A stretch of 64,000 bases of DNA from a virus (lineage: Duplodnaviria > Caudoviricetes): positions 11,824-75,823 of IMG/VR virus record IMGVR_UViG_3300031902_000003. One strand, given 5' to 3'. Shown here piece after piece: positions 59,021 through 64,000 of this stretch; within the stretch, counting starts at the first letter, position 1, and every line of letters begins with the position of its first letter. A model generated the notes under the pieces. The model was not told where the DNA came from. It searched no databases and worked only from the letters and a program-made list of their open reading frames with translations. A program made the position numbers and the translations under genes.

Positions 59021-59477
59021 TAGTAGTCTTAATTCAAGCTTTGAAGAGAGAAATAACTACTGCGTTCTCTGTATTGAGGGAAAGCTAAAACTTTTAGAGT
59101 CTCACGTTCAAGAGATTCAATTTCTAGTTAATGAAAATAAGAAGATAAAAGAAGACTCAAAGCTGAAAGACGAAAAGGTCACCGAGATCACAAGATTGCT
59201 TCAGGCTGAGACTCAAGGCATTGAATCTGCTCGTGTTGGTCTTTCCGATGAACATAATCCTTTTACTCCTGGAAACCAGGATCATGTTATGTGGTTGAGT
59301 GGCTGGCAATCTGTCGATACTCGTAGAAGGACTGAGCAGTCTATCGCTGTTCTTAGATGGTCAACTCAGATGCTAGATAGCGTCAGGGAATTGGCTCTAG
59401 GCTATGATAAGACAGAAATTGCGGACAAGGTTCAAACAGTTCTTGAAAAGTTGAGAAACTTCCTGGATAAGAAATGA
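58998..59477 (+). CDS. Hypothetical protein (CxxC-CxxC plus coiled-coil)
   Basis: CLSC...CVLC; HNPF..G...WLSGW resembles an Rmf-like motif. Confidence 0.6.
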   Translation: MSNCLSCDSSLNSSFEERNNYCVLCIEGKLKLLESHVQEIQFLVNENKKIKEDSKLKDEKVTEITRLLQAETQGIESARVGLSDEHNPFTPGNQDHVMWLSGWQSVDTRRRTEQSIAVLRWSTQMLDSVRELALGYDKTEIADKVQTVLEKLRNFLDKK

Positions 59478-59971
59478 AAATTTTAAAGTATCCAAATAGG
59501 AGTCTTACAACACCGACCATTGAGATTGACTTTAATGATCTTGGAGATAGTGATGTTCCTTCATTGGTAGAAACAATGAAACTCATGCTTGCCGAACAGC
59601 ATAACGGTTTAGCATTGGCAGCTAATCAGGTTGGTTTGCCGTGGAAGCTTTTTGTGGTCAGAAGTGATTTTGCCGCAGCTAATAATATAGCTAATGTGAT
59701 CGTCAATCCGAAGTATGTCGGGATCGAAGATGAAGTTGCAGATAGAGAAGGATGCTTATCATTTCCAGGAGTAAACCTCCTAATTTCAAGATATGCAGCT
59801 ATAGCCTGTTCATATTTTAATATGCAAGGAGAACAGTTCTCTTGCCAGTTGAATGGTCTTGTTGCAAGAATGTTCCAACACGAATGTGAACATTTAGAAG
59901 GTAAGCTTTTCACAGATAACGTAGATCGAATAACTCGTTACCAGGTATATGGTGTTATGAGGAAAAGATAA
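59474..59971 (+). CDS. def: Peptide deformylase
   Basis: GLALAANQVG, EGCLS and QHECEHLEG. Confidence 0.93.
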   Translation: MKILKYPNRSLTTPTIEIDFNDLGDSDVPSLVETMKLMLAEQHNGLALAANQVGLPWKLFVVRSDFAAANNIANVIVNPKYVGIEDEVADREGCLSFPGVNLLISRYAAIACSYFNMQGEQFSCQLNGLVARMFQHECEHLEGKLFTDNVDRITRYQVYGVMRKR

Positions 59972-60965: not shown

Positions 60966-61448
60966 ATGAAACCACAACTAAGAGTAGGTATAGTCGGTAG
61001 TAGACGTAGGTGCAGTTTAACCGACAGAAAGATTGTATTTAATCTTGTAGAAAAGATCGTAGTTAACAATCCTCATAGAGATGTTGTCATTGTATCTGGA
61101 GCCTGTAGATTAGGAGCAGATAATTTTGCAGCAGAGGCTTCTAGGATCTATAAGTTGAAGCTTGTAGAGTATCCTGTTGTTCCTGGGACATATGGAGAAA
61201 GATGGGAATTCGCTAAAGCTGCTTTCGCTAGAAATAAGAGTATAGCTGAGAATTCTGATGTTGGATTTGCTCTCGTGCATCAAGATAGAAAAGGTGGTAC
61301 TGAAAATACCATACATCATTACCACGATCTAAAAAAGAAAATTTATCTTGTCGATGAATCCGGAAGAACATACTTATCCTCAATAGAGGAGAAGAACTTT
61401 TCAGATGTCACGCAAGACCCCGACAAGGATAGAAATTCATCGACTTAA
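60966..61448 (+). CDS. SLOG / DprA-Smf Rossmann-like protein
   Basis: VGIVGSRR, IVSGAC..GADNFA, ARNKSIAENSD and GGTENTI. Confidence 0.75.
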   Translation: MKPQLRVGIVGSRRRCSLTDRKIVFNLVEKIVVNNPHRDVVIVSGACRLGADNFAAEASRIYKLKLVEYPVVPGTYGERWEFAKAAFARNKSIAENSDVGFALVHQDRKGGTENTIHHYHDLKKKIYLVDESGRTYLSSIEEKNFSDVTQDPDKDRNSST

Positions 61449-61758
61449 ACGGCACCTAAATGGCCCTAAGTCTGAGCTTATCCCTTTTCATGATTTAGAT
61501 GATAAAGAAAGAGTTATAGTCTCTGAATCTATTTTTAGTAAAATTTATACCTCTAAAAAAGATCCATATGAAGCATATGCTGAAGTATTAGATGATTGGG
61601 GAATTATCTGCCCACATCCGCAGCATATGAAATTATACTCAGGTACAGTAGCTTCTTTATTTCCTCTATTCCCACATAAGTGGTATAAATGCCAAGTTTG
61701 TGACTGTCTATGCATCAATGAAGATTTTCACGAAGAATCTGTCAAGATGGCAAAATAA
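61405..61758 (+). CDS. Hypothetical protein
   Basis: CPHP...CQVC. Confidence 0.55.
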   Translation: MSRKTPTRIEIHRLKRHLNGPKSELIPFHDLDDKERVIVSESIFSKIYTSKKDPYEAYAEVLDDWGIICPHPQHMKLYSGTVASLFPLFPHKWYKCQVCDCLCINEDFHEESVKMAK

Positions 61759-61770
61759 TCACAAAAGTGT

Positions 61771-61799
61771 GTACCTCTGAAAAATCTTGTGATATTATT
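61771..61799 (+). promoter_or_regulatory. Promoter upstream of the RNA cluster
   Basis: TGTACC-17 bp-TATTAT. Confidence 0.6.
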
Positions 61800-61955
61800 T
61801 AGTCATAATCGAAAGTTAGAACATATATAACTTTTAGGAGAATGGTTGTGCTAAATCAACGCGCCCAAAAATTTGAAGCGTATAACTGCGTGGCAGAACA
61901 GGATAGTATTGCATCCTTGTCAACACGCGGTAATAAGCTTCCAGGACGCCATATA

Positions 61956-62008
61956 GGATTTACCAGCACTTCCTATCTCTGGTAAATCCCAAAACATAAA
62001 GATAGGAA
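61956..62008 (+). ncRNA. H-type pseudoknot upstream of tRNA-Gln
   Basis: S1 GGATTTACCAG/CTGGTAAATCC (11 bp); S2 TTCCTATCT/AGATAGGAA (9 bp); L1 CAC; L3 CAAAACATAA. Confidence 0.65.
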
Positions 62009-62020
62009 CGAAGAGAATAT

Positions 62021-62091
62021 TGGGGAATCGTCCAATGGTAGGACGACGGTCTTTGACACCGTCTATGTAGGTTCGAATCCTACTTTCCCAT
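62021..62091 (+). tRNA. tRNA-Gln(UUG)
   Basis: TGGGGAA/TTTCCCA, ACGGT-CTTTGAC-ACCGT, GTAGG-TTCGAAT-CCTAC. Confidence 0.93.
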
Positions 62092-62122
62092 TGAAGTAAA
62101 ATGCAGTTGAAAGGAAAATAAA

Positions 62123-62608
62123 ATGTTGCTGGATAAGAGCTGGAAGACGATCAACGGTAAGCCAATGCCAAATATCCTTGAAGATATCAAGGCTCTATTG
62201 GTAGAGGATGATACGGAGATCCACGTGGGTACAGACTCTCAGCAAGCTGGTAAGCATACGGAGTTTGTATCCGTAATTGTAGTGTTGAAGAAGGGTAAGG
62301 GTGGTAGGGCATTTTACGCTAGAGAGAGAACGGCAAGGGTTAAGTCACTTCGAGAAAGGCTTTTGAAGGAGGTGTGGATGAGCGTGAATACGGGATTGGA
62401 GTTGAACTCACACATTCCAGAAACTTCTGGTTTGACTGTTCATATCGATGCCAATCCTAATCTGAAGTTTAGATCTTCAGATCACGTTAAGGAACTTACG
62501 GCAATGGTTGTAAGCCAAGGTTTCAAGACCCTCCTCAAGCCTGACTCTTGGTGTGCAAGTCATACCGCAGACCACGTTGTAAAGAAGACTGTGTTGAAAG
62601 CATCATAG
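62123..62608 (+). CDS. RNase H-like YkuK/DUF458 family protein
   Basis: IHVGTDSQ, ERLLKEVWMS, VHIDAN and IKPDS-like LKPDSWCASHTADH. Confidence 0.8.
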   Translation: MLLDKSWKTINGKPMPNILEDIKALLVEDDTEIHVGTDSQQAGKHTEFVSVIVVLKKGKGGRAFYARERTARVKSLRERLLKEVWMSVNTGLELNSHIPETSGLTVHIDANPNLKFRSSDHVKELTAMVVSQGFKTLLKPDSWCASHTADHVVKKTVLKAS

Positions 62609-62658
62609 TTGAAAGCCTCTGCAGTAGAAATATTGCAGAGGTTATTTAAATAGAATAT

Positions 62659-62746
62659 GGAGTGTACGCTTGCAACGGCAACGCAAGGTCGGTCTTGAAA
62701 ACCGATAGTTCTGAATAAGGGCCGGGTTCGACTCCCCGTCACTCCG
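62659..62746 (+). tRNA. tRNA-Ser(UGA), atypical D arm
   Basis: TCGGT-CTTGAAA-ACCGA, long variable arm, 5-bp D stem CTTGC/GCAAG; mismatches in acceptor and T stems. Confidence 0.75.
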
Positions 62747-62819
62747 CAGGAAAGCTATATAGGGATAGCAAACAGGGGATCTGTTCGGCGGTTCAGGAAC
62801 CCCAACATTTTGAATAAAT

Positions 62820-62891
62820 GGGCTGCTAGTGATAATGGTAGCACGTCGCCTTTGCACGGCGAATGTAAGGGTTCGATTCCCTTGCGGTCCA
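62820..62891 (+). tRNA. tRNA-Ala(UGC)
   Basis: GGGCTGC/GCGGTCC with G3.U70; TCGCC-TTTGCAC-GGCGA. Confidence 0.93.
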
Positions 62892-62949
62892 CAGTAGATC
62901 TTTTATAAGTGAATAGTTGACGGGGAAGCACCAACTTCCCCTGTAGTAT

Positions 62950-63021
62950 GGTGGTCATGGTGTAATGGTAGCACGGGACACTGTGAATGTTCGAGCGACG
63001 GATCGATACCGTCTGACCACC
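62950..63021 (+). tRNA. tRNA-His(GUG)
   Basis: G-1:C73, GTGGTCA/TGACCAC, GGACA-CTGTGAA-TGTTC; T-loop variant ATCGATA. Confidence 0.9.
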
Positions 63022-63100
63022 CAAGCCGGTAATGTTAGCTCGCGCCTAACTCTCACCACCATTAATTTTATGGTGAGGTCGTCTAAAGCAGGACACCGGC
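63022..63100 (+). ncRNA. Circularly permuted tRNA-like unit P (3' half precedes 5' half)
   Basis: Acceptor 7/7, D 4/4, anticodon stem 5/5 and T 5/5 pair only in permuted order; encoded CCA at 63059-61. Confidence 0.75.
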
Positions 63101-63108
63101 ACCAGATG

Positions 63109-63216
63109 GAGAAAGACATAGGTTCGATTCCTATAATGATACGTGCTAGCCGAGATTCAGGTCGCACCTGATATGTTAGTGCCGCGACTCATTTAGTTTA
63201 ATGGTAGAACATTCTC
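63109..63216 (+). ncRNA. Circularly permuted tRNA-like unit Q (3' half precedes 5' half)
   Basis: Anticodon stem TTCTC/GAGAA 5/5, D arm GTTT-AATGGTA-GAAC, T arm ATAGG-TTCGATT-CCTAT, acceptor 5/7. Confidence 0.65.
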
Positions 63217-63248
63217 GTTTATTTTATGATATAATGGTTTCACAGTAT

Positions 63249-63324
63249 GGGGGTGCAGCTCATGTTGCGTCGGAGCAACCGCCTTTTAAGCGGAAGGTCG
63301 TGGGTTCGATTCCCTCCGCCCCCA
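63249..63324 (+). tRNA. tRNA-Lys(UUU)
   Basis: GGGGGTG/CGCCCCC, ACCGC-CTTTTAA-GCGGA; unusual 11-nt D-loop; preceded by TGA-TATAAT promoter. Confidence 0.9.
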
Positions 63325-63409
63325 CATTCTAGATGCGAGTCTTACCGTAAGGCACTCGAGTTGATTCAGATTTGAATTTTGATTGTCTGACATCTAGGAA
63401 TCTTTTCAT

Positions 63410-63481
63410 CGTGCGTAACGCTACTGGAGTGGCGATCTCCCTGTCACGGAGACGAGATGGGTTCGATTCCCATACGCATGA
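63410..63481 (+). tRNA. tRNA-Asp(GUC)
   Basis: CGTGCGT/ACGCATG, TCTCC-CTGTCAC-GGAGA, ATGGG-TTCGATT-CCCAT. Confidence 0.85.
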
Positions 63482-63486
63482 AGTTT

Positions 63487-63600
63487 GGGTTGTGTTGATG
63501 GAACTAGTTCTGGGTTCGAGTCCCAGTGTCTCCACTAATATGGGGATAGGAATTGGTCCCTGCCGCGGCAGTGTAACGGGTTCGACTCCCGTACAATCCA
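63487..63600 (+). ncRNA. Strand-swapped double tRNA mimic without anticodon loops; two G3.U70 acceptor helices
   Basis: GGGTTGT/ACAATCC-A and GGGGATA/TGTCTCC-A each pair 7/7 only in swapped register; two perfect T arms. Confidence 0.75.
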
Positions 63601-63608
63601 TAGATTTT

Positions 63609-63683
63609 GGATCCTTGGCATGTCTGGTTGATTGCGGTAAGCTGTTAACTTACTCTAGCTCGGTTCGATTCCGAGAGGGTCCT
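63609..63683 (+). tRNA. tRNA-Asn(GUU)
   Basis: GGATCCT/AGGGTCC, GTAAG-CTGTTAA-CTTAC. Confidence 0.9.
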
Positions 63684-63695
63684 CTTTAAAAATTT

Positions 63696-63781
63696 GGGTC
63701 ATTTGAATCAATGGAGATTCAGTGCGCTGTAAACGCACCCTGCCTGGAGCATACCGAGAGGTTCGATCCCTCTATGACCCA
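63696..63781 (+). tRNA. tRNA-Tyr(GUA)
   Basis: GGGTCAT/ATGACCC, GTGCG-CTGTAAA-CGCAC, long variable arm. Confidence 0.92.
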
Positions 63782-63784
63782 CAT

Positions 63785-63867
63785 CGACGAGTGATGTAAT
63801 GGTAGCCATAGTTGACTTAAAATCAACTGACTTAATTGTCGTGAGGGTTCGAGTCCCTCCTTGTCGA
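63785..63867 (+). tRNA. tRNA-Leu(UAA)
   Basis: CGACGAG/CTTGTCG, GTTGA-CTTAAAA-TCAAC, long variable arm. Confidence 0.9.
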
Positions 63868-63953
63868 CTGTTCCGGTGGTGAACCGGAAGCCTGAGACGT
63901 CGGGTAGTGACACATACTTCAAGTTGTGTGACAGCGAGGAGAGACTGCACCAT

Positions 63954-64000
63954 ACCTCTATGGTGGAATTGGTAGACACAGCATCCTCAAAAGGTGCCGG
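63954..64000 (+). tRNA. tRNA-Leu(CAA), truncated by the window end
   Basis: GTGGAATTGGTAGACAC D arm and GCATC-CTCAAAA-GGTGC. Confidence 0.85.

Follow-up and report, generated by a model that had tools for sequence, protein, structure and literature searches.

An RNA element between two tRNA genes of a phage tRNA array

The window analyzed here covers the final 64 kb of a 75.8-kb viral contig (IMG/VR) from a large uncultured phage, with an estimated completeness of 37% (CheckV). The contig encodes a DnaE-type polymerase and has only distant protein similarity to cultured phages, an rIIA-like protein showing 26-30% identity. An array of tRNA genes on the plus strand extends from about 62.0 kb to the end of the contig. 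The element under study lies within this array, 5 nt from the upstream tRNA-Asp gene and 8 nt from the downstream tRNA-Asn gene, all three on the same strand (Table 1). The tRNA-Asp gene was missed by ARAGORN and was added by Rfam at a permissive threshold. Scanning of positions 61400-64000 revealed no terminator-like sites and no promoter-like sites on the plus strand, so that the element is most simply viewed as part of the polycistronic transcript of the array; it would then be released by the tRNA-processing enzymes that act on the surrounding tRNAs.

The array and its surroundings contain further features (Table 1). The tRNA-Sec-like match is possibly another non-standard tRNA with a long arm. 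A second permuted junction consists of a stem-loop, TCTCACC, ACCA, 10 nt and GGTGAGG; its loop is non-canonical and its third pair is U3-A70. Downstream lies another T arm, for whose 3' strand AATGATA no pairing partner is evident, and the region gave no match to the second covariance model described below (R2). A homologue of the peptide deformylase gene recurs at one of the related loci (L013, ~5150-5591), where the end of def falls within the 5' strand of the L013 family member.

Table 1. Position of the element, its parts and nearby genes in the window
Feature	Position	Strand	Remarks
Peptide deformylase gene	59474-59971	+	
RNaseH_like (PF04308) ORF, 161 aa	62123-62608	+	between tRNA-Gln and the Sec-like element of the array
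tRNA-Sec-like match	62659-62745	+	in the tRNA array; 32.5 bits versus a cut-off of 47
Second permuted junction	63022-63216	+	
tRNA-Asp	63410-63481	+	anticodon GTC, G1.U72; Rfam tRNA 42.7 bits in a short-region search
Two-headed RNA element	63487-63600	+	114 bases, between tRNA-Asp and tRNA-Asn
Helix A 5' strand GGGTTGT	63487-63493	+	7/7 paired with ACAATCC 63593-63599; predicted RNase P site 5' of G63487
D-like hairpin 1 GTT-GATGG-AAC	63494-63504	+	GG in loop
Linker TAGTT	63505-63509	+	4-5 nt across members, the length of a tRNA variable loop
T arm 1 CTGGG-TTCGAGT-CCCAG	63510-63526	+	
Helix B 3' strand TGTCTCC and discriminator A63534	63527-63534	+	predicted 3' end of piece 1
Junction loop CTAATAT	63535-63541	+	7 nt; predicted to be removed
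Helix B 5' strand GGGGATA	63542-63548	+	7/7 paired with 63527-63533; predicted internal RNase P site 5' of G63542
D-like hairpin 2 GGA-ATTGG-TCC	63549-63559	+	
Short hairpin CTGC-CGCG-GCAG	63560-63571	+	at the position of an anticodon arm, without anticodon loop
Linker TGTA	63572-63575	+	
T arm 2 ACGGG-TTCGACT-CCCGT	63576-63592	+	
Helix A 3' strand ACAATCC and discriminator A63600	63593-63600	+	3' end of putative piece 2
tRNA-Asn	63609-63683	+	confirmed by Rfam at permissive threshold

The two units of the element pair in a swapped register

The sequence-only reading had described two tRNA-like units with a 7-nt spacer, perfect T arms, a D-like hairpin and a CTGCC/GGCAG stem, all of which match base for base. 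It had also proposed that the acceptor strands pair between rather than within the units, and both the sequence and the covariation among homologues (see below) bear this out: in their own register, the acceptor strands of each unit pair at 3/7 positions, versus 7/7 for each of the two swapped helices, including two G.U pairs in helix B. Each helix begins with G1-C72, G2-C71 and G3.U70 and is followed by A73, a set that can be read directly in the window and is conserved across the family. An anticodon arm with a 7-nt loop is absent from both units, unit 1 having none and the hairpin of unit 2 having a loop of only 2-4 nt.

The minimum-free-energy fold of the element retains both swapped helices, T arm 2 and the small hairpin. 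At a z-score of only -1.67, this fold carries little weight alone, and the proof has to be comparative. Neither ARAGORN nor the Rfam tRNA model (RF00005, cut-off 29 bits) made a call on 63487-63600, and none of the Rfam 15 families scored at or above threshold for the window element or for the element at seven member loci.

Relatives are found in other large phages

We searched for homologues using sequence patterns and covariance models. A pattern of two T loops lying closer together than adjacent tRNAs allow returned the first homologue, L013, and a junction pattern returned L187. Members were then collected by patterns that each fix GGG/TCCA in only one of the heads. With the marks of head B fixed and head A left free, 86 loci were obtained, among which 15 distinct sequences carry an upstream 7-mer that pairs at 6-7/7 positions with the strand after T arm 2 and sits 23-63 nt (mostly 23-27 nt) upstream of T loop 1; the mirror pattern, with head A fixed and head B free, added further members. 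A covariance model (R1) derived solely from the sequence of the window element matched L273, L187, L231, L300, L237, L013 and L263 at 40-73 bits; at E values up to 1 its matches were mostly ordinary tRNA pairs, and those of at least about 40 bits were kept. With the second model, R2, members scored 47-118 bits and were set apart from ordinary tRNA pairs. As MAFFT misplaced the 5' strands, we instead used alignments fitted to the model together with an anchor-based parsing of our own, which sets helix positions by ungapped T-loop distance, without recourse to the model. About two dozen independent large-phage contigs from different samples carry members of the family.

A 38-nt junction string had no match in viral contigs, and comparison with cultured phages, by megablast and blastn for the window region and by blastn for the L273 element, yielded matches at the level of T arms only. 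A pattern specifying both heads returned 38 loci from 185,579 bacterial and archaeal species (one genome each). These were rejected as self-paired tRNA-Ala genes with partial duplicates downstream, or as repeats, with R2 scores of at most 44.5 bits, and the family appears to be confined to phages as far as the both-heads pattern can see. Loci from Saccharibacteria and other CPR lineages (L405, L398, L397, L418, L394 and L400) contain a full tRNA-Ala with a shortened second copy within ~10 nt and short inverted matches on the flanks, an arrangement suggestive of integration scars or of partial duplication at tRNA-Ala.

The members are mostly found within large tRNA arrays, on the tRNA strand, in phage contigs of 10-517 kb; no tRNA was called at the member loci L263, L237 and L269. 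We found no conserved, function-specific neighboring protein gene among the member loci. Three small clusters of neighbors are common to 4-5 member loci, one of which resembles a GIY-YIG homing endonuclease, the other two being without a convincing Pfam match. A full tmRNA gene is present in at least 7/23 member contigs (a one-piece tmRNA above cut-off in 6/23 and a permuted tmRNA in L013), and SmpB in only 1/23. At one locus (L256, 5377-5882, minus strand), a one-piece tmRNA gene (113 bits) is separated by 5 nt from the member that follows it.

A further locus, L419 (1041-1137), corresponds to positions 89151-89247 of the cultured Streptomyces phage Wofford (NC_048722.1), an unannotated 97-nt gap between tRNA-Gly and tRNA-Arg. 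The gap is occupied by a tRNA-like element with a double T arm, an outer helix TGAATGT/ACATTCA, a closed inner hairpin and no alanine marks; it scores 35 bits with R2 and may represent a cultivable relative of this architecture.

Covariation among homologues supports the swapped fold

The sequence-only reading had suggested a covariance search in other phages, and such a search shows compensatory changes in the swapped helices of the homologues. Over the whole swapped structure, 95.8% of positions are paired with 8 homologues and 93.5% with 23, and changes on both sides are found at 24/34 pairs (8 sequences) and 29/34 pairs (23 sequences). None of 500 shuffles reached these values, and sliding the partner columns by 1-3 positions reduced pairing to 35-58%. 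These figures carry two caveats, as the alignments were fitted to the model and the members were gathered with the marks of one head fixed; the helix positions, however, also follow from the model-independent parsing. The own register, in which each unit pairs with itself, was rejected: it is 58% paired across the family, which is below its own shuffles, and its pairing is confined to three shared invariant positions. Together with the 3/7 pairing in the window, this rules out a tRNA cloverleaf.

The support extends over most of the individual helices. Helix A is 96% paired with 4-6 covarying pairs, and helix B 97-100% paired with 4-5; in both, positions 4-7 take many pair types, and positions 1-3 are near-invariant as G-C, G-C and G.U. 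T arm 1 (helix 3) is 99-100% paired with 4 covarying pairs, T arm 2 (helix 7) is 97% paired and covaries, and all four pairs of the short hairpin (helix 6) covary. D-like hairpin 1 (helix 2) has a covarying stem of 2-3 bp, and its segment contains RGG or TGG in 19/19 members. For D-like hairpin 2 (helix 5), covariation is weak, with 75-86% of cells paired and TGG in 14/19 members. RNAalifold, given the same alignment, predicted the two swapped helices, the two T arms and the small hairpin unaided. Judged by these compensatory changes, the element is a real, conserved phage RNA gene, and the data support a fold of two cross-paired tRNA top halves that carries alanine marks on both and no anticodon.

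Alanine identity marks recur at both acceptor ends

The bacterial determinants of alanine identity are A73, G2-C71, G3.U70 and G4-C69, and AlaRS also aminoacylates minihelices (PMC9976931). All four marks are found in head B of the window element, and all except G4-C69 in head A. Across the family, GGG/TCC with A73 is found in 17/19 A heads and 18/19 B heads, counts to be read in light of the fact that each scan fixed the marks of one head. The head-B A73, at the position of A63534, is present in 19/19 members. CCA is encoded directly after A73 in 7/19 A heads and 4/19 B heads, versus 1/64 expected by chance (binomial P about 1e-8 and 2e-4, respectively), and C74 comes next in 13/19 A heads and 15/19 B heads. 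The junction loop measures 4-12 nt among members, four of which read CCA there.

When head B was left unfixed by the search, 14 relatives proved to be of the open, alanine type, one had GAG/TTC, and five (L314, L350, L353, L358 and L356) had a closed hairpin without alanine marks. These five suggest either that the second open head is dispensable or that the family has subtypes; a second alanine head thus seems usual in the family, though not universal. A GG-containing motif is kept in both D-like segments, as would be expected if each T loop forms a tRNA elbow.

Two members differ in the make-up of their units. At L013 (5673-5722, plus strand), unit 2 retains, at the site of the short hairpin, a 5-bp stem with the 7-nt loop TTTGCAC, which would be the anticodon loop of Ala UGC, and lacks a D arm; this hints that unit 2 descends from tRNA-Ala. 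At L260 (1111-1228, plus strand), unit 1 contains a full canonical D arm (TAGCTCAGTGGTAGAGC) in place of the mini hairpin.

A two-piece, two-headed alanine acceptor is the favored reading

We propose, with a probability of roughly 0.55, that the element gives rise to a two-piece RNA with two alanine-accepting ends that would mimic, or compete with, Ala-tRNA or the tRNA-like domain (TLD) of tmRNA. In this model, helix A would join the 5' strand of unit 1 to the 3' strand of unit 2 and stack on T arm 2. Helix B, formed by the other two acceptor strands (3' of unit 1, 5' of unit 2), would stack on T arm 1. Each stack would correspond to the top half of a tRNA, with a GG-containing D-like loop available for the elbow, and the four helices would meet in a junction with the D-like hairpins on the crossing strands. 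RNase P is predicted to cut 5' of G63487 and 5' of G63542; trimming of the 7-nt loop and of the 3' trailer, followed by addition of CCA, would yield pieces of 48 nt and 59 nt joined by two helices. AlaRS, which needs only the acceptor helix, could then charge both ends with alanine. As there is neither an anticodon nor a tag message, the RNA cannot decode, and its likely targets would be factors that read the acceptor, T arm and elbow, namely SmpB, EF-Tu, AlaRS, or defence toxins directed against acceptor ends.

The two-headed interpretation had already been part of the sequence-only reading; its swapped, alanine-marked and anticodon-less fold stands, and loop removal and CCA addition have gained indirect support only, from the CCA encoded behind both discriminators in relatives and from the short junction shared with phage permuted tmRNA genes. 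The roles it suggested (decoy for toxins, titration of SmpB, EF-Tu or RelA, alanine donor) are candidates. Cutting at an acceptor stem that is closed by a loop is plausible given the precedents of phage permuted tmRNA junctions and of M. smegmatis YrlA (PMC4201824). Because alanine identity can be carried by an acceptor helix alone, any role requiring a charged RNA without anticodon would select for these marks. The inhibition of tmRNA by a TLD-only molecule (PMC4131195, PMC11915505) makes a decoy role plausible as well, and the frequency of intact phage tmRNA among the carriers disfavors simple inhibition of trans-translation.

An alternative concerns the fate of helix B. Were the junction loop to remain in place, the product would be a one-piece RNA in which helix B forms a closed hairpin, a capped acceptor mimic like that of S. 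Typhimurium YrlA, and only helix A could be charged. The five closed-B relatives without alanine marks are of this kind, the related and unannotated element of Streptomyces phage Wofford is also closed, and Chen et al. detected cleavage of neither S. Typhimurium YrlA nor D. radiodurans Yrn1 (PMC4201824). We nevertheless regard a one-piece product as unlikely for the window element: G1-C72, G2-C71, G3.U70 and A73 are retained in 18/19 B heads, and the directly adjacent CCA or C74 would not be needed by a closed cap. Moreover, helix B has 7 bp, the length that Chen et al. named as the determinant of RNase P cleavage (PMC4201824), and the same junction is processed in permuted tmRNA genes.

The likeness to permuted tmRNA could also mean that the element is a TLD-only derivative of such a gene, which would bind SmpB and block or redirect host trans-translation, as has been proposed for DS6A. 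Consistent with such an origin, T arm 1, helix B and the loop are matched at 21.4 bits by the permuted-tmRNA model (RF04321 tmRNA_permuted), several members reach sub-threshold scores of 24-34 bits with the one-piece tmRNA model, the L256 member directly follows a tmRNA gene, and the DS6A mini-tmRNA provides a precedent (PMC4131195). All tmRNA scores are nonetheless below the cut-off of 47 bits, with the alignment to RF04321 covering 63510-63548 only and stopping at the acceptor and T arm, and the second head is without a tmRNA counterpart. Member phages, moreover, often have an intact tmRNA and only 1/23 has SmpB, and we consider a reduced tmRNA improbable. That the element is non-functional, made of two decayed or recombined tRNA remnants or of an assembly chimera, is hardly credible: pseudo-tRNAs do occur in phage tRNA arrays, and ARAGORN and Rfam call nothing here, but the boundaries between the neighboring tRNAs are precise and the same architecture, with compensatory changes, is found in about two dozen independent contigs from different samples, which also speaks against the assembly artefact named by the sequence-only reading.

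A bolder form of the two-piece proposal, to which we lend tentative credence and which we rather doubt in full, is that the particle with two alanyl ends constitutes a new aminoacylated non-coding RNA, with both heads and their charging needed for phage fitness. Such a particle could, for example, be a bivalent decoy for dimeric AlaRS, EF-Tu, SmpB or an acceptor-targeting toxin, or it could be a dedicated non-ribosomal alanine donor.

Few anticodon-less tRNA mimics, such as tmRNA and YrlA, are known, and each opened a field. The present family recurs among large phages with a strong investment in translation genes. Charging of both ends would make it a new class of aminoacylated RNA, one that probably takes part in the conflict between phage and host over translation or tRNA-targeting defence. 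These genes are skipped by tRNA and tmRNA finders, which leaves phage tRNA arrays under-annotated.

Comparison with known RNAs

We found no description of a tRNA-like phage RNA with two acceptors, and no counterpart to a natural RNA with two cross-paired, alanine-marked ends, in Rfam 15 or in the literature searched. The small stable RNAs of phage T4, species 1 and 2 (rnaC, rnaD), lie at the end of a phage tRNA cluster and are annotated only as such. We rejected them as homologues because both sequences and architecture differ; the score of 27.5 bits that the family model gives in T4 is noise at the level of tRNAs.

Permuted tmRNA genes, including those of phages (RF04321, RF01849-51), share the junction of the element, with a T arm, a 3' strand, A(CCA), a loop of a few nucleotides and GGG in this order. 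Both have an alanine-type tRNA-like domain across the permuted junction, with G3.U70 and A73, and for both, maturation to two base-paired pieces is expected. Among matches to the short junction in phage contigs, 69/111 fall in permuted tmRNA genes called by ARAGORN, with gaps of 4-8 nt from A73 to G1. ARAGORN called no tmRNA anywhere in the window, and it does call the permuted tmRNA of L013. Unlike permuted tmRNA, the element has no tag reading frame and no pseudoknots; its predicted second piece, of 59 nt, is all helices, and a second T arm and a second acceptor helix take the place of the mRNA-like part.

The mini-tmRNA of mycobacteriophage DS6A, likewise encoded by a phage, and the jakobid mitochondrial tmRNA resemble the element in lacking an anticodon and a tag and in having an acceptor of the alanine type (PMC4131195, PMC11915505). 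As described, they comprise little beyond one tRNA-like domain, in contrast to the two cross-paired heads seen here. A TLD-only molecule strongly inhibits tmRNA, perhaps via titration of SmpB (PMC4131195, PMC11915505).

YrlA (RF02553), particularly that of M. smegmatis, has a permuted tRNA-like module composed of a T arm, a closed acceptor stem and a D arm. In M. smegmatis, RNase P cleaves this closed stem of 7 bp both in vitro and in vivo, leaving two pieces, and the upstream half gains CCA in vivo (PMC4201824). RF02553 gave no match to the element at E values up to 10, no TROVE gene is present in the 75.8-kb contig (37% complete), and we found no Ro60-binding stem or motif in the element; descriptions of YrlA, for their part, mention neither alanine identity nor a second head.

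Each individual head, a 7-bp acceptor helix on a 5-bp T stem with A73, G2-C71 and G3.U70, resembles the tRNA-Ala acceptor/T-arm minihelix substrates of AlaRS (PMC9976931). Those minihelices are laboratory constructs, whereas the element is encoded by a natural gene and combines two heads of this kind in a single RNA.
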